Assembly (NCBI RefSeq): GCF_004010195.1
Contig: NC_057718.1
Location: 87,540,606-87,604,605 of the forward strand
Source of the DNA: Chiloscyllium plagiosum
Lineage: Eukaryota
DNA length: 64,000 bases
Direction: 5' to 3'
Under the pieces are notes generated by a model, which saw nothing but the letters and a program-made list of their open reading frames with translations, was not told the DNA's origin and ran no database searches. The stretch's first letter is position 1. Each line of letters opens with the position of its first letter. The position numbers and the translations under genes were made by a program. Positions 1,211-57,239 of this stretch are shown here, one piece after another.

Positions 1211-1599
1211 TGCTTAAGGGCTACATTCTCAAAGGCAAGTAAGACAAATATGGAGTCTATTGCATTTGATAAATTTAAGCCCAAGTTGACTTCAGAGGTT
1301 AATGGCTGAAAAGACAAGATGATATATCTCTTAGCTAAAGATGAGTGATTTGATATCTATAATTTTTGAAAGACAAGTCCAGTGAGACATTTTTGGTTTG
1401 AGAGCACGCGGTCAATCTTGAAGAGTATTAAATGCATTTGTTTCATCAGGTTAAAGAAATTTTATGAAGATTATGTAATCTAAAGGTCTGGCCATTGCTA
1501 TGGAGCTGCATGATACTTGGAGAAGTTCTCTAGTTCCAATTCATTCAGCTGTTGAAGGAATTATTTGCAGCTGAGGCCTAGCATTCACTGCAGTCCAGA

Positions 1600-2900
1600 A
1601 GGTGGTCATAGTAAATGACAGGCCTCTTGCAATGAAGGTCAATTTACCATTTGCTTGCTGTACCTATTTTTGTTGCATTATAAGGACACCCAGGTCCCTT
1701 TCTCCTTCAACACTGCCAATATATCACTGTTCAAATAATGGATAATCCTTTTGTTTTTCACACTGAATGTATAACTTCATGTTTAGTTGTATTGGGCATG
1801 TGTTTGCCCACTTGCTCAGTTGTCTAGATCACTTCACAGCCTCCTTATGTCCATCTCAACACTCAATCCTGCCCAGTTTTGTCATCAGCAAACTTGGAAA
1901 TATTGCATTTGGTTCCCTCGTCTCTGTACAGAGGCACCCCTGTTATCTGAATATCAATTATCCGAATTTCGGATTATCCAAAGAAGATCTCAAGGTCCCA
2001 ATTGAAACATTACATCAAAAAGATGTTACCAACACTGATCACTTCTTTTGTTTACAATGATTAAAAGTGAATTCGGCTTACTGAAATGCTGTTAAGAACA
2101 GTCCTGGACAATGATGGGAGCGCAGGCATCATCTCCAAATAACTGACCTCCCGCGCCCTCTCTCTCCCCACACTTATCCTGAAGTTCTAGATATGGGTGT
2201 ACCCTAAAGACCCTTTCCCCAGATAATCTCTCCAACATTATCCTGTACAGGGTAGAGTGGGAACTTGTCAAAACGTTGTGCGTGTGGCTGCTTGTGTGTG
2301 CGCTCGCTATTTTGAGACTCTTTCCCTCCCCCCCCTCCCCCCACACAAAGGCAGCAGTCTGGATGCCATTTCGGGTCAGGGACAGGGAGGGGGTTGGTGT
2401 TGCATGGTGTGCTGCTGCCTAGTCTCCTGAACAGGGAGCAGACATAGCAAGTGCTCACACTCTCAATCCCATTGAAGTGAAGTAGTGACGGGGAGAGGCT
2501 ACAGCAATGCTGCAGGCCCCTTACACATAAGTGTGTGTCTGCTCAGAAACAAACCCTGAGACAAAGAGAGAGCAAGGCAGGCACAGCAAGGAAAAAGGAA
2601 ATTTCAGAAAACTCCAAGCCCCAGAGGAGGGGCATTGAATGAATTATCCGAATAATCAATTATCTGCATGAAATACTGCCCGCTGATCTCATTCGGATAA
2701 TCGAGGTTCCTCTGTATGTTGTGAATAGCTGGGCTCGAGCATTGATATTTGTGGTACCTTACTAGTCACTGCCTTTCTTAGGGAAAAGACCCATTTATTA
2801 CCACTCTGTTTCCTGTCTCTCAATTCTTGATCTATGCCAATATATTATCCCTATCCCATATGCTTTAACTTAGTCCACTAACCTCTTATGAGGGACCTTA
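1600..2900 (-). mobile_element. Decayed CR1 RT fragment interrupted by a MITE
   Basis: Antisense CR1 RT landmarks on both sides of 1929-2714 (gtcatcagcaaac = FADD; gaatagc...tggtacc..actagtcac = VTSGVPQ). Confidence 0.6.
1929..2714. mobile_element. Tigger/pogo-like (Tc1-mariner) non-autonomous element (MITE)
   Basis: TA at 1927-1928 and 2715-2716. Imperfect TIRs: left CAGAGGCACCCCTGTTATCTGAA, right (reverse complement) CAGAGGAACCTCGATTATCCGAA. Subterminal ATTATCCGAA repeats; no transposase. Confidence 0.8.
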
Positions 2901-2995
2901 AAAGAATGATGCCACATTTTCAGTTGAGGATGGTACGTGGCTTGGGACCTTAAAAGAATGATGCCACATTTTCAGTTGAGGATGGTATGTGGCTT
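2892..2995 (+). repeat. 52-bp tandem duplication (2 copies, 1 mismatch)
   Basis: gggaccttaaaagaatgatgccacattttcagttgaggatggta(c/t)gtggctt starts at 2892 and at 2944. Confidence 0.95.
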
Positions 2996-4451
2996 GGAGG
3001 GATATTATATTTGGTCGTAATCCCATCTAAGTAGTTGAGGTTGAGTAATTGACACTCTGCAGATTTTCTGCTCAGAATTATGTATGCTAGATACTTTTGA
3101 GAAAAGGGTGGATACAAATATATCTTTGATAAAGTTTCTTAGTCAATAAGCCAATTATTCAGTCTTGACCAAAGGAACCTGACTGACTTGTTCTTAATTA
3201 TGAACCTGATCTAATATAACTGCTCTGCAAAATACGCACTTACATATTTGGCCCTAACATCAACCGGTTAAATTTAAAATTGGTGACCAGTGGAGGAATG
3301 GGATTAGAAAAGAAAACAGAGCAACCCTTCCAACTTTGATCTTTAAAACTTTTATTGATCAATGACCCCCTCACAATAGCTGTCAGTGTTCTGAAAATTT
3401 CTTGATGTTTCTATGCACCCTGAAATAATTATCTTCTATGGGAATGAGCTACTTAGGCCTCATAAGGCTAGTCAGTATTCCCACATTCACATGGTGATGG
3501 CACTAATATTACTTGAAGAGGCTGTTTGTGGCATTTAATGATTATATGAGCGAAACTACAATTCAGGATATTTGCTATTATGGACAGACTTTATGGTTTT
3601 AATCTCTCCTTGGACTCCACTCTTATTAGGGAAGTGGAAGATTCATTGTTTTCTGTCAGTTTAATCTCAAAAGCTGTCTTTGCTTCTCTATTCATTATAT
3701 TTATATGATTTGCATTTTCTTCCACTGAACATAATGGTGCTTCCAACCAGGAATTCACATAAGTAACTTGTAAGCATACCATTGTTCTCTTACATTCAAT
3801 TTCTTACATGCCATCACTGGCACTAATCCTCATTCTTGCACAACTTGATGCTTGTTAACTGTTTATACTGGGTGTCTTCCTGGAACCACTATTTGGATGG
3901 TTTCTTCTGGATTCAGTGGGGTAATTTCCAAGAAAATTCTCTACAGGAACCCTTTCCAAATGCTAAAGATGTCTTTAAGTAGGTTTTCAGCTCTGACATT
4001 TTGCTGAGAGGTGTTGCAAAGGAAGAGAGGGAGCAATGAGCTATCCCTTCCCGTGCCACCCTCACATTCTCTGTGACTAGGTTCAGAAATGCAACAATAT
4101 TGATCCACTCACATACAGGCTGTGACCTCTCTTTGAAAGTCTTCAGACATATGACTCTATCTGAGCTCCTTGCAAGAGCACCATTATTGTTACTGTGCCC
4201 AAACCTTTTTTTGTTAATAAAGCTTATTTTGAATAAAAGTTCAAGATGTACTTATAAAAACTTCACATAATCTTTTTATATTAAAAAATTAAATCTTTTC
4301 ACAACACCTTCACCCTTGGGAGAAATAACAGGAACCACCAGCAAAGATACAACAGAGTGCATCAGGAGAGAGCATTTTAAAAAAGAAAACTGAAGTCACC
4401 AGTTCAGTTTGAAAAAACATTAGTAACGTTACAGGAAAACCTTACTGGAAT

Positions 4452-9322: not shown

Positions 9323-11859
9323 CTGCTGAGGGAGACAATGAATGGGTGACCAGAAGGCAGTGCAGGTGTCCCCTGCGGTCATCTCCCTCCAAAACAGGTA
9401 TATCGTTTTGGATACTGTTGGGGGAGATGACTCACCAGGGGACGGCAGCTATTGCCAAGATCATGGCATCGTGGCAGGCACTGCTGTTCAGAAGGGCAGG
9501 AAAAAGACCTCATAGGGCCATAGTCATAGGGGATTGTATTGTAAGGGGAGTAGGTAAGGGTTCTGTGGCCAAAAACAAGAGTCACAGATGGCATGTTGCC
9601 TCCCAGGTGCTCAGGTCAAGGACGTCACTGATCAGCTGCAGAGCATTCTGAAAGGGCAGAGTGAACTGCCAGTTGTCTTGGTTTTATAGGCACCAATGAT
9701 ATAAGTAAAAAAAAAAAATTAATGTCCTGAAAGTAGAATTCAGGGAGCTAGGAGAGAAGTTAAAGAGGAGGACCTCAAAGGTAGTGATCTCAGGATTACT
9801 ACCAGTGCCACGTGCTAGCCAGGGTAGAAATGTTAGAATAGGCAGGATGAACACATGGCTTGAGGGATGGTGTAGGAGGGAGGGGTTCAGATTTGTGGGA
9901 CATTGGGACCAGTTCTGGGGAAGGTGGGACTATTACAAATTGGATGGCCTATACCTGAACCAGAATGGAACTAATGTCCTTAGGGGAGTTTTTAAACTAA
10001 TGTGGCAGGGGGCTGGGAACCAGAGGAGAAGACTTTTGGACAGTAAGTTGGAAACAAGAGACTGTAATGTTCATGAAGTTAGCATTACCAAGGGGAAGAG
10101 TAGGCAGAGAACAAATGAACGTAAAGGAACTGGTGGTCTGAAGTGCATATACTTTAATGCAAGGAGAATAGTGAGTAAGGCAGATGAGCTTAGGGCTTGG
10201 ATTGGTGCCTGGGAATATGACATTATTGCAATCACAGAGACTTGGTTGAGGGAAGGACATGATTGGCAGCTAAATGTTCCAGAACATGGATGCTTCAGAC
10301 AGTTCAGGGAAGGAAGTAAAAGGGGGGAGGAGTTGCATTGCTGATCAGGGGTGCTAAGGGAGGACACTATGGAGGGCTTGAGCAGTGAGGCGTTATGGGT
10401 AGAGCTGAAAAATAAGTGTGCAGTTCCATTGTTGGGGCAGTATTACAGGCCTCCCAACAGTGAGCATGAGGTAGAAGAACAAATAGGTAAACGGATAATG
10501 GAAAGACGTAGAAGAAACAGGTGGTAGTGATGGGAGATTTTAATTTTCCCAACATTGACCTGGATACACTGAGTGTCAGAATTTGTATGGAGCATCCAGG
10601 AAAGTTTTCTAGAGCAGTATGTCGATAGTCCGACGAGGGAAGGGGCCATATTGGACCTGATGTTGGGTAATGAGCCAGGCCAGGTGGTAGAAGTTGCAGT
10701 GGGGGATTTCTTTGGGAATAGTGCCCACAATTCTGTAAGTTTTAGAATACTCATAGACAAAGATGATGAGGGTGGTCCTGAGGGAAGAGTAGTAGACTGG
10801 GCCAAGGCCAACTTTATTAATATTCGATAGGAGTTGGGAAATGTGGATTGGGAGCAGCTACTTGAAGGGAAGTCCATACTTGAAATGTGGGAGGCTTTCA
10901 AAGGTAGGTTGAAGGTAGTGCAGGATAGGCATGTCCCTTTGAAAACAAGGGATAGGAAAGGCAAGATTCATGAACCATGGATGACTCAAGAGGAAAAGTG
11001 AAGTGTACATAAGGTCCAGGCAGCTAAGAACAGAACGGGCCTTGGAAGAATATCGGGACAGTAAGATCAATCTTAAGCAAGGAATCAAACGGGCTAAAAG
11101 GGGTCATGAAATAACTTTAGCGAGCAGAATTAAGGAGAATCCCAAAGCCTTTTATTCATATGTAAGAAGCAAGACGGTAACTAGAGAAAGGGTTGGTCCA
11201 CTAAAGGATAAGGAAGGAAGGTTGTGTGTCAAACCTGAGAAAATGGGTGAGATTTTCAATGATTACTTTGCATCCGTGTTCACTGAGGAAAGGGATATGA
11301 TGAATGTTGAGATTGGAAATAGAGGTTTGTTTACTCTGGATCACATTGACATAAGGAGGGAGGAGGTGTGGGGTAGGCTAAAGGATATTAAGGTGGACAA
11401 ATCACCAGGACCAGATTGGATGTATCCAAGGTAGCAGAGGGAAGCGAGAGAGGAAATAGCTGGGGCCCTGACAGATTACTTGTAGCATCCTTAAACACAG
11501 GTGAGGCGCCTGAGGACTGGAGGATTGCTAATGTTGTTCCCCTGTACAAGAAGGGCAGTAGGGATATTCTAGGTAACTACAGATCAGTGAACCTGACATC
11601 AATGTTGGGAAAGCTGCTGGAGAAGGTACGAGGGATAAAATCTATTTATATTCTGAAACGAATGGGCTTATCAGTGATAGGCAACATGGTTTTGTGCAGG
11701 GCAGATCGTGCCTTACCAACTTAATAGAGTTCTTTGAGGAAGTGACCAATTTGATGGATGAAGGAAGAACTGTAGATGTCATATACATAGACTTTAGTAG
11801 GGCATTTGATAAGGTTCCCCATGGTAAACTAATGGAGAAAGTGAAGTCACATAGTGTGC

Positions 11860-12180
11860 AGGGTGTTCGATTCTCGCCCTCGGTCGATAGTCTGTGTGGA
11901 GTTTGCACGTTCTCCCAGTGTCTGCATGGGTTTCCTCGGGGTGCTCTGGTTTCCTCCCACAATCCAAAAGCTGTGCAGGCCAGGTGAATTGGCCATGCTA
12001 AATTGCCAAGTCAGGGGTAAATATAGGGTAGGGTCTGGATGGGTTACTGGGTTCTGGACTCCCCGACCCCAGGGAAAAGACTTTGCCTATTTACCCTATC
12101 TGGTTACTCATCAGATAGTCTGTGTGGACTTGTTGGGCCAAAGGGCCTGTTTCCGTACTGTAGGTGATCAAATCGATAAA
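11860..12180 (+). mobile_element. HE1-like V-SINE inserted in the CR1 RT region, itself carrying a small antisense CR1 insert
   Basis: V-domain and tail interrupt RT between ...KVKSH and the VTSNVPQG block. Confidence 0.85.
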
Positions 12181-16349: not shown

Positions 16350-16895
<546 letters not shown>

Positions 16896-19315
16896 TGACT
16901 CTTTTGGGATATAATTTACAGGAACATGAAAGGGACTAAAGTACTTGCTATGATGTGAGTTAGAAAGTGGCTTGAATGGCAGTTGGCATCAGATGTGCAG
17001 GAGATTTATCTTGTAACATGGACAAATCACTTTTACAGGATCAAGAGACGGCTCACTGTCACTGTCTCATGAGCAATTAGGGATAGCTCCCTGCTTCAGG
17101 CAGTGATGTCCAACTCCCATGTCAAAGAAAATTCAATGGGTGAAAGGTCATTTCTAATCTTGTAGTAAAATGTAAAGTAGTCACAGATATTGGAATCTGT
17201 CAATTTGTTATGAACATGTGGGAATTTCAGTTCCATATCGGTATTGACAAATCTGGTCCAAACTTGAGTTTGGTGTGAAGATTTGAGTCCTGCACAGGAA
17301 TATAGAAAGGAATATAGACAGTTACCTGTAGTTATATTTGTGCAGATATTTGACTATTGTATAAACATACAGCAATCTGTCTGATTTTTGTATTTGGTAT
17401 GTTATCGTAGGAAATCTGTGGGTAATTTGAATTCTAGGCAGAAATCTTCCCAGCATTTGAGTTTCTCACTGATTGACTTTTTCTTCATGTTTTAGTTTTA
17501 AAGTGAGGTATAATAATCAGGTGCATGCTTGAGTGCCATATGGGGACACAATAATTGTCAGGTATGAGATTTATTCTTTTCTGTAATTCATACAGAAATT
17601 TAGAGAGGATTCATCAAAGTTATGCAGGTTTGAGAAATTGTTAATGAGCAGTGACTTGAGATACTGGATCTGTTTTTGCTGGCTTAGAGAAAGCTAAAGG
17701 AAGACAATGGGTTTTTTTTAAATTATGGAGAGTTTTGGGAGAGTAGTTAGTCAGTAATGAAGTGTTCTTGATTTTAAAATTTGTCACTAAGAAGTGAGAG
17801 GACATAAAATGCTTCACCACAGGGACTGGTTGCTCCTGTGAAGGGAAAATTAGATAATTTTTTAAAATTAGACCAAAATACAGTACGATTGGGAAAGGAC
17901 AAGGTAGTGGGATTTGTTTTTGCAATAGTTTGACTGGCATGGACACAATGAGATGGTCTTTATGATTCTGTGGGGATATATATAATAGATTTAGTCATGT
18001 TTTACATTCTATACTGAGTACAATGCATTGAATTATTTGAGCCTACAAGGCCTACATTTTAGAATGTGCTTAGCACTTGAGATCCATACAGTAGTCAAAT
18101 TTGGGATGTGTATCTTTCAATAGAACTCAATTAGCGCAGTTTCTAGCATTTCTTACCAATTTAAGTCTAGTCCAAATATCTCTTTTGGTTTAGAGGTGTT
18201 GACCATTCCCCAAAGCAGTCTAGCTTTATGCCTGAAGGGAAAGACATAATCACACCGTCTGTTAATCCGCACTTCATAAAAACCAGTCAGTCTCTCTGGC
18301 GACGAAGACATAATAAAAACCTATTGCAAAATCTTTGCCATCTGAAAGGGACTATCAAGATGCTTCAGTCATCCTCAGTGAAATAAGAAAACTGAGAAAC
18401 AACTGGTATTAAATCTTCTTTAAAAGGAGATTAATTAGATAAATTAATTGGTTCCTCCAGCTATTTAGTTGCAGAGAACCTGAGTTTTTTTCATTCTGAT
18501 TCTTAGAGCGTTGTCAAAGCAACATTTTTCCCCTCATTTGGATTTCTGCAAGAGTATTGGTGTAGTTGTTGTTCTGTTGTGAAGATATTTTACTCATGTC
18601 AGTTTGGTGAATGTACAAAATGTTAAGCTTATTGCACTGAATCTTGCTTGAAAGATGGCCGAATGTTACAATGCTTGGCAATTTAAAAAGAATTGAACTG
18701 CTGCACTAATAGATACTCACATTCATGACTGGCATTATTTCTTGCAATTTGCTGTTCTCCCAAACATGCTCAATATTCCTGTGATCACAATTCTATGTCA
18801 ATCACACGAATCAGCAATTTCGCTCAGCCATCCTGTTGCCTGGGAAACCTTTTCCCAGCAGCAAACGATGTATGCCTGACAACCAGTTTGACACTGAATT
18901 GAAAATTGAAAGTGACCTCTCGTTATATTGAAGCTGAGTAGCTTGGCAGAGCACTAAAATGATTAGGATTTGAAGGAGCACTGTGTATTGTGTTGAAGAA
19001 ATCTCTTTTAATGATTTCTTTTTATGGGGGCCACATAATTGTTTTCAAGCCATTAAACAAATAAATCAAAAACCACTTGAGTAAACATGCCTGGCATTTT
19101 AAAGGCACTCACCATTGAATTTTAGGAAGATTTAAAGTTGCAAAGAACTGAAAATAAATTTCTAAAATGTAAATTGAGTAGTGATTAAATGTTACACTAT
19201 CATCTGAGACAGTTAATGAGGCAATGTTACCAGCCCTTCTGAAAGGGTCAGTGTGGAAATCCAACAGCATCACTTGAAAGAGTGCATATGGAATTTTGTC
19301 CATATTAATGAAATG

Positions 19316-49393: not shown

Positions 49394-49572
49394 AGGGTGA
49401 CACTGGCTCAGTGGTTAACACTGCTGCCTCACAGCACCAGGATCCTGGTTCAATTCCAGCATCGGGTGACTGTGTGTGTGGAGTTTGCATGTTCACCCAG
49501 TGTCTGCATGGATTTCCACTGGGTGCTCCAGTTTCCTCATACAATCCAAAAATGCGCAGGTTAGATAGATTG
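49394..49572 (+). mobile_element. HE1-like V-SINE (3'-truncated)
   Basis: Head and V-domain present, tail absent. Confidence 0.8.
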
Positions 49573-49599
49573 GGGTAATGTAGCATGGCCATAGAGTCC

Positions 49600-52500
49600 A
49601 GCTTAGTCGATGTGTGGTGACGTGGAGGTCTGGTGCATGGGTTTGAGATTATTGAGAGTATCACAGATGTCCTCATAACAAGGGATAAACCCCCAGAAAA
49701 GCCAACAAAAGGGCCTTATGAAATCAAGTCAAGAAAACCCAAGAACAACAAGACCAGGAAGAACACAGGATCAAGAAAGAGATGGGCCACCAAAAAAACT
49801 CACTTTTAAGCAACATGTTGTCTGACATATTTGTAAAGAAACTAACTGGCTAGCCAACTTATGGGAGCACCAGCTACCATCTCATGTCCTCTCTCCAAAA
49901 AGAAACTATCAGAACTTGTGGGCTAAATTATCAGTTCCAAACAGCAAAGTAAATGTCAATATATTTGCTAAATAAACCGGTCCTCTGGGCAATGGACAAC
50001 TGATGAAACCAATTGAGGAGGAGCAATTCAATACAGCCGGTAAAGGAATTGACCCTAAAAGCACAATTTGGCCTGGTTGGGATGAGCCTGGAAGACGTCC
50101 AAGGCATCTATGACACACAGCTTATGTGACGTCTTGCTTTGGTTAAAGTACTATTCCGGAATTACTTAAGAAAAGCCACACAGTTCTCAGAATGGAAACA
50201 GAAGATCCAGAACACCTTAAAAACACAGGCAACTGGTGGCCCATCATGATAGGTCCCATGTTGCTATGGCTTTATACTAGAGCTCATCCGCTCCATCCAT
50301 TTCTTTTTCTCTAGTATTCTCTTTTAGATTTATTTTCCGCTTTTCTCTTCTTCTCTGCCTCAGACTCTCAGCCTCAGCACGGACTGCGTGAGGCATCCTC
50401 TTGGCTTGGTGCCATGGTTTCCTGATACAGCATGGAGGTCTCTCAGCGGCCTGGTGTGACGTCCTCTCAGCCCAGCGTGGTGGTCTTTCAGCCTGGTATA
50501 GTCTCAGCATGCACCTCCAGTCTTGAGGTGAATCCAGAGTGGCCTCCCGGCCTCGGTGAAGAGCAGTGCTGACTGGAGGCCAGGTGCCAGGGTGGACTGA
50601 GTTGGAAGGACTGTTGTTCTGAACGTTTTATTTCTTTATTTTTCCTATTTATTCCTAAGATCTGCAATGTTGGACTTTTTATTTCTTTCCTAAGAACATG
50701 TACTGAAGATGAGATAAACCCAAGAGAGAAGGGTTTTCTGGCAGCAACTCTCAGCTGCAATGAGAACATTAAAGTGTTTGAAAACATCATATCAGGAACC
50801 AATCACAACCTACCAATGACCTAGCAATTGTTCTTGCCAACTTGCAAGGATGTTCGATTCAGTTGAACTTAAACTTCTCATCAAAGCTTTGCACTAAGTA
50901 AACTTCCCCTGGTGACTTCATTAAACTAATAGAAGACCTGTATTCAAACAACACAACAGTCATTGAGGCAAAAACAGAAATTGCTGGTGAAACTCAGCAG
51001 GTCTGTGCAGAAAACAGAGTTAATGTTTTGAGTCCAGTGACCAAATTGTTAACACTGCTTTCAGAGTGGTCACCAGACGAGAAACATTAACTCTGCTTTC
51101 TTCTTGCAGATGCTGCCAGACCTGCTGAATTTTGCCAGCAATTTCTGTTTTTTGTTTCGGGTCTCCAGCATCCGCAGTTCTTTGTTTTAGTTATCGAAGG
51201 TATTCAGACTAAAACCTAACCTATCAACGTAGAGAGGCGAATCACACAGGGTGATACTCTCTCACCCATCCATTCAATATTGAACTAGATCAGCTGGTGT
51301 TCTCCTTGGAACAGGCCAAATCACAAGTTTCATGCTGTTAGAAGATCAAAGAGTTAACTGTTCTGCTTTGGCCTTTGCAGATGACATTGCTCTGTTAAGC
51401 ATCTCACATTTGGGATGAAACCTGAAAATAGTCCAACGTTTTTGTAAACATCCAGACCTGTGTATTAGCATCACAAGGACACTTTGCTTACAAAGGAAAG
51501 ACCTTGATGTACAATCATGAAGAGAACTGGACAATGAAAGGTGACCATGTCTCCAACATTCTCCTGGGCAAGACAGAACAATGCCCGGGGGTCCACAACC
51601 CATGGCCCGGCGTGTCTGAGGGTGCTCAGGAGGAGCAGTTTAAAGCATGAGTTTCCAACCTGAAAACAACAGCTCTTCAACCAATGCAGAAGTTGGAAAA
51701 CTTAAAGACATGTCATTCCCACACTGTACAACCACTCTGTCTTAATGAGGCTTCACAGAACATTCGTATCAAATTGGACCATGTGCGGTGCCACAAAACA
51801 GATTCTACATGTTCCACCACACAAAACAGACAGCCTCCTTTAGTCTAAAAACAGAGATGGTTGGCTCAGTGTGTTAAAACTTCAAGTGCAGATTCCATTT
51901 GTGATAATTTGGAAGCAGCAGGTATTTGAGACATCGAGGGACATCATGATCCAGTTTCATTCGATTTCTGCAGAAGGAACATTGACACCAGAATAGCACT
52001 CTGGAAACTCAAGACTCTGGAGGAGATTACAATCTTCCTACAGGACAAGAAGTGTAATACCTCAGAGATGGAAGAATCTACACAATTGACTAACCCTGAC
52101 CAGGCACCAATCAGCAAAATACCAGGTTGTGACTCATGGAGGAAATCAGAACTCTTCCAAGTAGCTCAACCTCAAAAATCAGACTGGGTATCAAGTACTA
52201 CCAAAGTGATAAAGTATCAAATTCATGGATCAACCCGCCTTCAATATTCAATCATCATGACTTAACCAACACCCTACTCCAATGCTGTGACCTTTACGCA
52301 ATCTTTACTCAAGGTTGACCAAAAATGATCAAAACTTGTCACAGATGCAAGGCTTCAAAAGAAATCCTTGCACCCAATGGTGTCCATTCTCCAAAATGCC
52401 CGAATAAAGTGCCACAACAAGATCCTGGCACAACTGCAAAATTGTGTGTCTAAATAGAGGTAGATGTCATATCTAGAACCCAGACCAAAGGATAAAGGAA

Positions 52501-52960
52501 CTTTGGAAACTCAATGTTACGTTCAAGAAAGATCAATCAGTCACAGTGGTTGATGTAACAGTGCAGTATGAGGACAATGACACAGGGTGTGAGAAAGCTT
52601 GAGAAGAAAAAAGATGGAGGTATCAACACTTGGGTCTGGAAATAAAGGAATTGACAAGGGACCCTCAGTGCCAGAACATTTCTGATTCATGACAGGTTCT
52701 GAAGGAAAATGGCTTGAGAAGATCAACAGCCTCATGAAATTCCTGGGTATTCAATGCTATAAATCCTTTGCCCAACAAATATCAAGATTCTCCTGATGCT
52801 TGAACTTCTACAAATAGTCAGCATCAAGTGAGAAGACTGAAGAACCTGCCCAGCTGAAGCCTGGAGATGAACAACACTGACCCTATGATACAAAGTATTG
52901 TGTTCAGTCTGAGGACGTTTGGTGTCAGCACGCTTCACGAGGTAAGAAAATGGTGGTGGG
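49600..52960 (+). mobile_element. Decayed R2-clade (restriction-like endonuclease) non-LTR retrotransposon
   Basis: Motifs in order: IPELLKKSHTVL, GNWWPIMIGPMLL (50228), EINPREKGFL..SCNENI, MFDSV, QGDTLSPI (51247), SALAFADDIALLS (about 51362), LQPMQKLENLK, CHRCKASKEILA..WCP (52337), ARIKCHNKI (about 52398), EPR, VVDVTVQYE (52546), YQHLGLEIKELT, GKWLEKINSLMKFLGI. Confidence 0.82.
50968..51190. mobile_element. Palindromic Penelope-derived mini element nested in the R2 RT
   Basis: aaaaacagaaattgctgg...cagcaggtct versus agacctgctgaattttgccagcaatttctgttttt. Confidence 0.8.
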
Positions 52961-53109
52961 AGAAAAATTCATAAACATTTAAAAAATAAAGTTAAAAATG
53001 AAAGTTAAAACCATGTAAACTTTTAACGAAAGATAAAGTTGGAGTAATTGTGGTAGATAGCTAGCTAACCTTTTATACTTCTAATAACCTGCAAATTTCG
53101 AACCAGATT

Positions 53110-53395
53110 TCCTCAGATGGTGATGACTAGCATGAGGGGACATAGCTTTAAATTGAGGGGTGATAAATATAGGAGAGATGTCAGAGGTAGTTTCTTTACT
53201 CAGTAGTAGAGGCATGGAATGGCCTGCCTGCAACAGTAGTAGGCTCGCCAACTTTAAGGATATTTACATGGTCATTGGATAGACATATGGATGAAAATGG
53301 AATAGTGTAGGTTAGATGGGCTTCAGATCGATTTCACAGGTCGGTGCAACATCGAGGACCAAAGGGCCTGTACTGCGCTGTAATGTTCTATGTTC
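53110..53395 (+). mobile_element. CR1 3' fragment
   Basis: gaggggacatagctttaaattgagggg...gggcctgtactgcgctgtaatgttctatgttc. Confidence 0.8.
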
Positions 53396-54647: not shown

Positions 54648-56629
54648 GAGAAAGTTGGGACTGCAGATACTGGAGATCAGAGTCGAGAGTGTGGTGCTGG
54701 GAAAGCACAGCAGGTCAGGCAGCTTCCGAGGAGCAGGGGAATCGACATTTCGGGCGTAAGCTCTTCATCAGGAATGAAGCTTATGGGCTGGGGGCTGAGG
54801 GATAAAGGGGAGAGGGATAGGGTTGGGGGAAAGGTAGCTGAGAACGCGATAGGTGGATGAAGGTGTGGGAGAAAGTGATACGTCCTGGGGGGAAGTGATG
54901 GACAGGTCAGGAGGGCGGTGCTGAGTTGGAGGCTTGATAATGGGATAATGTGGGGGGAAGGGGAAATTAGGAAGCTGTTGAAATCTACATTTATCTCATG
55001 TGGTTGCAGGGTCCCAAGGTGGAATATGAGGCATTCTTCCTCCAGGCGTCGTGTGGTAACGTTTTGGCAGTGGAGGAGGCCCAGAACCTGCATGTTCTCA
55101 ACGGAGTGGGACGGGGAGTTGAAGTGTTCAGCCACAGCGGTGGGGTTGGTGGGTGCGAGTGTCCCAGAGATGTTCTCTGAAATGATTCACAAGAAGGCAC
55201 CCTGCCTCCATGATATAGAGGAGACCACGTTGGGTGCAATGGATGAGGTAGATGACATTGGTAGAGGTACAGGTAAGTTTCTGATGGATGTGGAAGGACC
55301 CTTGGGGCCTTGGAAGGAAGTGAGGGGAGTGCTGTGGGGTACAGGTTTTGCAATTCCTGCGGTGGCTGGGAAAGGTGCAAGGAGTTGGGTGTGGGCTGGT
55401 AGGGGGCGTGGACCTGTCGAAGTCACAGAGGGAATGGTCTCTCTGGAACGCTGATAGGGGTGGGGAGGGTGGTGGTGTCCTTTTGAAGGTGGCAGACGTT
55501 GGTGGGTAGAGGGTGAGGACCGGGGAAGTTCTGTCCGTTTTGCATTGGGAGGGCTGGGATTCAAGGGTAGTGGTGCGTGAAGTGGAGCAGATACGCTGGA
55601 GGGCATCATCAACGACATGGGAAGGGGCGATCTTAGAAGGAGGAGGCCATCAAAGGGACTTTGAGGTGGAATTGGTCATCTTGGGAAAAGATGCAGTGGA
55701 GGCAGAGGAATTGGGAATAAGGGATGACATTTTTACAGGAGATAGGGTGGGAGGAAGTGTAGTCTAGGTCGCTGTGGGAGTCGGTGGGCTTGTAGTAGAT
55801 GTCTGTTGTTAGTCGGTCACCAGAGACGGTGATGGAGAGGTCCAGGAAGGAGAGGGAGCTATCTGAGATGGTCCAGGTGAATTTGAGGTCGGGATGGAAG
55901 GTATTGGTGAAGTTGATGAACTATTCAGCCTCCTTGTGGGAATATGAGTGGTGTCGACTCAGTCATCGATGTAGTGGAGGAACAGGTGGGAATGGTGCCG
56001 GTGTAACTGCAGAAGATGGACTGCTCCATGTCCCCAACAAAGAAGGTGATAGGTCAGAGAGGGGAGTGATGGACAGGTCAGGAGGGCGGTGCCAATTTGG
56101 AGATTTGGGACTGGGATAATATGGGGGGAGGGGAAATGAGGAAGCTGTTGAAATCCATATTTATCCCAAGTGGCTGCAAGGTCCCGAGGCAGAGTATGAG
56201 GCGTTCTTCCTCCAGCGTCGGGTGTAACGGTTGGGCAGTAGAGGAGTCCCAGAACCTGCGTGTCCTTGACTGACATAGCTGGGTCCCATGCGGGTGCCCA
56301 CGACTACCCCTTTGGTTTGGAGGAAGTGGGAGGATTGGAAGGAGAAGTTGTTGAGGGTGAGGACCGGTTCAGCCAGGCGGATGAGGGTGTCGGTGAAGAG
56401 TACTGGTTAGGACGGTGTGAGAGGAAGAAATGGAGGGCTTGGAGACCTTCTTCCCTCCTGTGTGGCTGACGATGTCCTCCAGCGTATCTCCTCCACTTCA
56501 TACAACACTGACCTGAATCCCACCCCTCCCAAAGCTACAAGGACAGAACCTCCCTGTGCCCAAAATGTCGATTCTCCTGCTCCTCAGATGCTGCCTGACC
56601 TGCTGTACTCTCTCAGTAACACACGCTCG
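54648..56629 (-). mobile_element. Penelope-like element (RT + GIY-YIG remnants), rearranged, with inverted termini and an 18-bp TSD
   Basis: AEHFNSPSHS...RRLEEECLIFHLGTLQPHEINVDF (GIY-YIG C-terminus), FLHYIDD, HFLQTKGVV.GTRMGPSY. TSD actaatgttc(c/a)aacctgg at 54630 and 56630. Confidence 0.9.
54739..54776 (-). ncRNA. Minimal hammerhead ribozyme motif in the PLE terminal repeat, catalytic core intact
   Basis: Minus strand AUUC-CUGAUGA-A-GAGC-UUAC-GCCC-GAAA-U-GUC-GAUU. Confidence 0.72.
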
Positions 56630-57239
56630 ACTAATGTTCAAACCTGGACTGGTACATAAAGGTTTGCACTCTGACTGGCATTCTCCAGTTGAGTTGAAGC
56701 AGGCTTTTTAACTCCTGTTCTTGTGTATTCTTCAAAGGGAAGAACAAAAAATATGCTTGCAGTTTGGGACTTCGGCGATATGGGCAACTTGCTATTGAGC
56801 AGGAGTTCATCAGTCTCTCATTATCGTTGTAATCATAAGATCAAAGTCCAGTCTGTTTTGACTTGTATACCTCCCACTACTCTTGTTGTTTGATGTTCTC
56901 TTCACATCCGTGGGTGTGGTATTTATTGGTCCCACGTAGAATTTTTGCCGGTCAACCACTGAATTTATGTCTGCAGTCATTTTGTCTCTGTATCAGTCCT
57001 CTTTTACAAAAAAAAACCCAATTTGGAATTAAGGGCTAAAAAGCCATCCATATATTTTGGGGTTCTGACAGTATCTAAACAATATTGATACTGCACTTTA
57101 TGAAGAGAAATCTCCACTCAATGTTGCTTTTGAAAGCCATGTTCTGAATGAACATGCTACAGTATCTCTTGGATGATAGATAATCTAGAAATATTGAACT
57201 ATTTCCTGGGATGTAAAGAAAACTTAGAGGTTATATTCC

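Follow-up and report, generated by a model that had tools for sequence, protein, structure and literature searches.

A stretch of 64,000 nucleotides (nt) from the genome of the shark Chiloscyllium plagiosum (3.56 Gb; C9:87540606-87604605, referred to as the window and numbered from its first letter) contains a 5'-truncated and heavily decayed R2 retrotransposon at positions 49630-52966 of the + strand. As a rule, R2 elements insert into ribosomal RNA (rRNA) genes and nowhere else. The copy in the window probably arose long ago by target-primed reverse transcription at an ectopic site, from a lineage that resides in the ribosomal DNA (rDNA). We read it as a stray of an rDNA lineage because its relatives in the same genome carry a leader that starts at position -28 to the insertion site in 28S rRNA, and because one of these relatives sits in 28S.

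The window element is an R2, probably of the three-zinc-finger lineage

The element was read on the + strand, with nucleotides 49400-53100 translated in three frames. All motifs that an initial annotation of the window had listed for reverse transcriptase (RT), zinc knuckle, endonuclease and tail are present in these translations, and they follow the order of an R2 protein: NWWPIMIGPMLL, GFLAATLSCNEN, FDSV, QGDTLSP and ALAFADD (with the catalytic FADD at 51374-51385) on the RT side and, after the RT, a CCHC knuckle (CHRC...H...C) with RIKCHN in a shifted frame (52337-52399), LEPRP, VVDVTVQYE and the tail YQHLGLEIKELT...GKW...LGI. The coding remnant shifts among the three frames and its longest open stretch is 111 amino acids (aa). 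The frames were read with X at stops and searched against Pfam and against the solved structures of the PDB, and the PDB matches are exclusively vertebrate R2 proteins. Residues 250-295 of frame 1 (nt 50147-50284, the N-terminal part of the RT domain with NWWPIMIGPMLL) match residues 460-505 of 9nl3_A (E 4.5e-8), residues 1031-1086 of frame 3 (nt 52492-52659, the core of the restriction-like endonuclease with VVDVTVQYE ... K..YQHL) match residues 1047-1102 of the same chain (E 1.6e-9), and frame 2 had no match in PDB. Pfam detected no family in the three frames, and thus no AP (apurinic/apyrimidinic) endonuclease family, in this copy that lacks its 5' part, the expected place of such a domain; a Pfam scan alone would therefore miss the window R2.

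When reading was guided by a hidden Markov model, 545 window residues could be placed on profile positions 312-1046 of 1076. In tblastn, pieces of open reading frames (ORFs) from six relatives in the same genome (L055, L058, L059, L060, L061 and L064) match positions 49630-52808; all of these matches are on the + strand, and the rest of the window has none. The window copy has an R2-type RT domain (match to 9nl3_A, FADD with its flanking motifs, collinearity with the ORFs of the family) and a CCHC knuckle followed by a restriction-like endonuclease, and it is not inserted at the 28S site. We file it as R2 by descent; the 28S site is a matter of location, not of descent. The element is confirmed as an R2 retrotransposon, and to judge from its relatives it is of the three-zinc-finger (A-type) vertebrate lineage. 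Both the PDB matches and the placement in a clade of shark R2s (see below) support the R2-clade assignment of the initial annotation.

No rRNA was found at the locus. Rfam detected no rRNA family at gathering threshold in the 64 kb window, and the 28S leader motif has no match in the window with up to three mismatches. There is a single window match to TTAAGGTAGCCAAATG, with three mismatches, at position 11388, 38 kb away, and 0.92 such matches are expected by chance. The two halves of the 28S target, taken from the genome's own 28S, align locally to the flanks of both junctions no better than 27-58% of random window segments. The absence of 28S from the flanks and the location outside of rDNA, both described in the initial annotation, are thus borne out; a short 28S remnant at the window junctions, which would have contradicted its view, was looked for and not found.

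Relatives of the window copy in the shark genome

A DNA search of the genome with window positions 51900-52900 identified 20 other matches on 18 contigs, with identities of 64-78%; some of these relatives are far better preserved than the window copy. The window copy has only 65-75% DNA identity to any other copy. For its own lineage, four copies were found: the window copy, C9:65.08 Mb, C20:14.36 Mb and C2:9.63 Mb. They are 71-81% identical over their common parts, their flanks are unrelated and all four are outside of rDNA. The window lineage is sister to, and not part of, the main dispersed family of the genome (below also called the sister family), the members of which are 68-92% identical to one young copy.

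The 418-aa ORF of one relative (L020) aligns end to end with 9nl2_A (E 1.7e-73) and 9nl3_A (2.3e-68), two chains labelled as R2 retrotransposon protein, and with R2Tg (3.4e-68), compared to 1.7e-19 for silkworm R2, the N-terminus of another (L060) aligns with the three zinc fingers of 9nl2_A (residues 3-115, 3e-18), and the knuckle region of relatives aligns to R2 chains. Pfam searches with the relatives resulted in weak matches to RVT_1 and zinc fingers only.

A phylogenetic tree was constructed (FastTree, LG+gamma, 747 columns) from 67 R2-like reference proteins and 17 genomic copies, the latter placed frame by frame on a profile of the 67 proteins with gaps at the breaks; the reference set consists of R2-like proteins only, without NeSL, R4 or HERO. 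All shark copies form one clade (support 1.0), which is sister to a turtle R2-like protein (1.0) within the vertebrate group; arthropod proteins lie far from it, including some that carry the name R2 in the source data. L080 and L082 are the closest partners of the window copy in the tree (0.91), and this window group, which also holds the protein P0151, is joined by L081 and the main dispersed family (0.98). L066, the relative in 28S, pairs with a bamboo-shark protein (1.0).

P0151 is a gene model from the dogfish Mustelus asterias (938 aa, 'uncharacterized protein') with many zinc-finger matches in Pfam. R2-like sequence is found in its C-terminal part, and the tree puts it with the window lineage (support 0.78); the model is probably a chimera into which a piece of R2 was drawn.

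NeSL/Utopia, R4/Dong and HERO share the CCHC and endonuclease motifs with R2, and no references of these endonuclease-bearing clades are included in the tree. It is nevertheless extremely unlikely that the window element belongs to one of them: the PDB matches are R2 chains only, the DNA identity of 65-75% is to copies that have relatives at the R2 site and an R2-site leader, and the window copy nests in a clade with a 28S-inserted copy. Equally improbable is a recombined piece of rDNA, as there is no 28S in the window and none at its junctions beyond chance, and the shared 3' end together with the 5' truncation is a signature of reverse transcription and not of recombination. The rDNA links of the relatives, described below, make the R2 descent of the window copy hard to doubt.

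Dispersed relatives start with 28S sequence and one relative sits in 28S

Fifteen younger dispersed copies were examined over 7 kb each; seven are full length, with pairwise identities of 86-91%. All seven have GGCGGGAGTAACTATGACTCTCTT(AAGG) at their 5' ends, which is the sequence of the genome's own 28S from position -28 up to the R2 site, as seen in L067 and L069. L055, L058, L059 and L060 start with this 28S leader, L061 starts with a partial leader, and L052 and L064 have a leader with an extra partial duplication. L081, a near full-length distant relative with a 3' untranslated region (UTR) homologous to the one of the window copy, starts with GGCGGGAGTAACT directly after unrelated flank. 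According to a 2026 review (PMC13580325), cleavage by the R2 ribozyme typically keeps about 28 nt of rRNA on the template, and the end of the cDNA anneals to the upstream target. With a leader that starts at -28, the dispersed copies look like products of rRNA co-transcripts.

L066 (G000:C37:11767852-11776239) is the best 28S match in the genome and has an R2 inserted at the canonical site. This R2 is 5'-truncated and 2.2 kb long; the sequence at its junction is ...CATCAAATA|GCCAAATGCCTCATC, and that of the canonical 28S site is ...TTAAGGTA|GCCAAATG... The protein remnants of L066 are clearly homologous to those of the window and 68% identical to P0122, an R2-like protein from Chiloscyllium punctatum.

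The L066 locus is on a chromosome-scale contig, about 580 bp of its upstream 28S are lost and its flanks have only short 28S-like pieces; possibly, this rDNA unit is orphaned or has decayed. Two candidate sites for main-family copies in 28S were rejected: the flanks of this C37 locus, with nothing but the short 28S-like pieces, and the small contig C83320, which has only a 130-nt R2 fragment and no 28S.

Landing sites of the sister family

The 3' ends could be aligned for 40 loci of the sister family, of which 32 are distinct, and none of the 32 distinct 3' junctions is in 28S. At one of them (L015) the junction continues with 12 of 12 nt of 28S before unrelated DNA follows. The flank starts with G in 19 of the 32 cases. 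Nine of the 32 distinct junctions are at the same position of an abundant long interspersed element (LINE), for which a search with a part of it returned 2605 first-look candidates. The empty site, ...GGGGAGTAGAGACAACCCTGGTAATTATA|GACCAGTGAGCC..., is found in all uninterrupted LINE copies that were examined (11/11). By eye, the LINE site and the 28S site have TA|G at the nick and GGGAGTA about 22-28 nt upstream in common, and GGTAAYTAT of the LINE site resembles the R2 leader. Footprints of the N-terminal domain of a three-finger R2 are centred at -30 and -15, as reported in PMC11204384. In L064, the GGTAACTAT of the LINE is joined to leader sequence, as expected if the cDNA end annealed to a look-alike upstream sequence. 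The flanks of the main family outside of the LINE match 28S at a mean of 3.8 of 12 positions, compared to 2.97 for random 12-mers; this is mostly caused by the first G, and such a weak difference is not relied upon.

The LINE site is a feature of the sister family, and the flanks of the window copy show no such site. It is conceivable that the window lineage acquired a new specific target of its own: the ...TGGTGGTGGGAGAAAA at the 3' junction of its four copies would then be target DNA and not part of the element, and GGTGGTGGGAG would already have stood in the DNA prior to insertion. The four copies do share about 15 nt past a stretch resembling the terminus of the main family, and a precedent for the reuse of one site is given by the nine LINE junctions of the sister family. 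We still regard a new target as very unlikely. The flanks diverge directly past the shared stretch, with the exception of the window copy and L081, which remain similar for about 80 nt more in sequence that is 3' UTR-like; only four copies exist; and window positions 52960-53107 were found nowhere else in the genome, ruling out a repeated target at the 3' flank of the window copy.

Origin of the window copy

We propose that R2 template RNA was co-transcribed with rRNA from masters in 28S genes, an origin of the template that we infer from the relatives. The 5' ribozyme of the element would cut the co-transcript 28 nt upstream of the insertion site, and the R2 protein would nick a site other than 28S and copy the RNA from its 3' end. 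An early stop of reverse transcription or of 5' joining would result in 5' truncation. A copy truncated in this way would never have encoded the whole protein and would since have decayed as neutral DNA: the window copy is probably an ancient stray that was dead on arrival. An rDNA origin is favoured by the leaders, by the 28S tail of L015, by the absence of an intact ORF from all 15 examined relatives (the longest has 531 aa), by the lack of any pair of copies with more than about 92% identity, and by the R2 of the small-spotted catshark (R2-1_SCa), which is listed with a visibly similar ORF and upstream 28S sequence in Table S2 of PMC13188248.

Alternatively, the window copy could descend from an R2 lineage without 28S specificity (of the type named 'R2NS') that spread from dispersed masters. 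Loss of specificity is known in R2 (PMC5035012), all four copies of the window lineage are outside of rDNA with unrelated flanks, and the at least 32 non-rDNA junctions of the sister family have very different ages, with none in 28S. This appears unlikely to us, given the 28S leader in seven of seven full-length relatives and in L081 and the 12-nt 28S tail of one stray (L015). Furthermore, the young, near-identical copies outside of rDNA that characterise R2NS families were not found: the best identity is about 92% and 0 of the 15 examined copies have an intact ORF, and thus nothing points to bursts that started from dispersed masters. In a further-reaching version of this view, which we think quite unlikely, the four copies of the window lineage are what is left of an ancient vertebrate R2 that lived outside of rDNA. 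If true, a non-specific R2 would be seen for the first time in a vertebrate with this shark 'R2NS', and the wider shark R2 clade would have gone back and forth between life in rDNA and life outside of it.

Several observations weigh against a stray from rDNA. The window copy has no 5' end and therefore no leader of its own, and the case for its origin is built on relatives only. Members of the window lineage (four copies) or of the main family that reside in 28S are not seen in the assembly, and L066, the only 28S-resident copy, belongs to a third lineage. As assemblies usually collapse rDNA arrays, the absence of 28S-resident copies is weak evidence. No Rfam ribozyme family was found in L058, L060, L061 and L081 at E values up to 1, so that the 5' ribozyme is unconfirmed, and an identical 5' end could also come from a dispersed master that had kept leader and ribozyme. 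In addition, the tree places the window copy relative to R2-like proteins only, and the 3' end of the copy is uncertain, from 52966 to about 53054.

The initial annotation had offered two explanations, a shark R2 lineage with lost or changed target specificity and a rare off-target insertion. The leaders of the relatives, L066 and the L015 tail favour the off-target insertion and disfavour lost or changed specificity; 'rare' does not apply, with at least 32 distinct non-rDNA junctions in the genome.

Structure of the window copy

The ORF remnant at 49630-52808 (+ strand, as all parts of the element) extends from the region before the RT through RT, linker and zinc knuckle to the endonuclease; in the family element, which is 4.26 kb long, this is the part from about nt 1370 to 4000. 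The missing 1.37 kb (approximately) of the 5' end would contain the 28S leader, the 5' UTR, the three zinc fingers and the Myb region. The truncation point is approximately at 49615-49630, as there is no family match upstream of 49630 in the window; an interspersed repeat that is also present in unrelated loci precedes it at 49404-49573.

Two nested inserts, proposed in the initial annotation at similar positions, are confirmed by breaks in the tblastn matches, and both are later than the R2 insertion. Insert 1 (50282-50710; matches stop at 50281 and resume at 50711) is low copy and private to the window copy: the sister copy L080 is continuous at this position. About 10 R2 residues are missing across it. 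Insert 2 (50971-51189; matches stop at 50970 and resume at 51190) is an interspersed repeat with inverted ends and had a high contig depth in run X2; 50969-51010 and 51081-51152 match one flank repeat of L011/L029 in opposite orientations. The distance between the two segments with PDB matches exceeds the spacing in the protein by about 585 nt, which roughly fits the total of about 650 nt of the two inserts.

The 3' UTR at 52809-52966 is common to the sister copies L075/L082 and L076/L080, as seen in alignments. Homology to the more distant L081 continues to about 53054 and the end of the element may be anywhere between these two positions. A GTAATGGTGGTG-like unit is repeated two or three times in window 52950-53054 and in L081 5990-6130; varying numbers of this unit may be the cause of the differing ends among the four copies. 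A fragment of an abundant LINE follows downstream (53108-53395).

Comparison with known R2 elements

R2 elements of cartilaginous fishes are published as a PCR (polymerase chain reaction) fragment (PMC5035012) and as full elements (PMC13188248); Table S2 of the latter has 15 Chondrichthyes rows, for example R2-1_SCa and R2-1_CCar from the great white shark. These shark R2s and P0122 have the same order of RT, CCHC knuckle and restriction-like endonuclease as the window copy. NCSALAFADDIALLS is present both in R2-1_SCa and in the window, and the ORFs, compared by eye, are visibly similar; between P0122 and the window reading, identity is 34% across the 533 columns that both occupy. The shark R2s in Table S2 are curated as 28S-resident or full-length elements, whereas the window copy is 5'-truncated, dead and outside of rDNA.

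Among solved structures, the window frames match best, and exclusively, vertebrate A-lineage R2 proteins (9nl2, 9nl3 and 9dou, which is R2Tg), and relatives of the window copy align to these over 400 residues and the three zinc fingers. The proteins in these structures are active and 28S-specific, while the window copy encodes nothing intact.

Copies of R2 outside of rDNA are described for Drosophila in PMC2718515 as incomplete, divergent and unable to have seeded the rDNA population. The window copy is likewise incomplete, divergent and outside of rDNA. The Drosophila strays, however, are of the insect D-type with few copies per genome, while the shark genome has dozens, of the three-finger type, of which a part reuses one LINE site. 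R2NS-1_SMed and R2NS-1_CSi from planarian and liver fluke are non-target-specific R2 families according to PMC5035012: like the shark copies, they belong to the R2 clade and are found at unrelated sites other than 28S. Copies of the R2NS families are >98% identical to the consensus, indicating activity from dispersed copies (same source); in the shark, copies of such young age were not found, and the 28S leader is a pointer back to rDNA. In our literature searches, R2 copies outside of rDNA were found for insects and flatworms only, and no paper on such copies in vertebrates was listed; the main text of PMC13188248 does not contain the words off-target, ectopic, non-specific or pseudogene.

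The window copy is a member of an older, separate sub-lineage and involves no new principle; on its own it is a neutral fossil. As the oldest stray seen, it provides a dated point on where a vertebrate three-finger R2 goes if it does not hit 28S, in a record of dozens of strays over a long time, with about one quarter of the sampled junctions at one LINE site. Relatives of three-finger R2 proteins are under development as tools to place genes in human rDNA, and a natural catalogue of off-target sites could inform what such proteins tolerate.

Genomic context

The initial annotation had placed the element in a probable intron of a protein-coding gene. The window has 169 ORFs of at least 75 aa, of which 122 were scanned against Pfam (the shortest ones and those inside R2 were dropped). 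The only host domain among the scanned ORFs is a SAM domain at 16350-16895 (E 5.9e-16), and the product of this ORF is, in the SAM region, 91-94% identical to SAMD5-like proteins of three elasmobranchs. All three proteins map to 16392-16871 on the + strand and one of them also to 18174-18284 (+), which may be a small exon; a single exon holds almost all of the coding sequence of this SAMD5-like gene. About 31 kb lie between the end of the gene and the R2 copy downstream of it. As the only host gene found, it does not support the intron, with the limit that short exons may be missed. RNA reads from about 2% of run X13 mapped to flanking repeats only and not to the R2 body, which is uninformative as to expression or an intron. 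The R2 copy lies in repeat-rich chromosomal DNA.

A G-rich region at 54.6-56.6 kb was considered as an exon and rejected, as it consists of two copies of another repeat. These two G-rich copies (54677-56632), one direct and one inverted, have a minus-strand ORF with ...HFNSPSHS...LIFHLGTLQPH.IN..., which we take to resemble the GIY-YIG-type end of Penelope-like elements. On the + strand, a 211-aa ORF at 9709-10341 has a weak GDSL-lipase-like match (E 4.9e-4, below the cut-off), and ORFs with RT lie next to it (11577-11984); this 211-aa ORF could be a LINE ORF1 of the esterase type.

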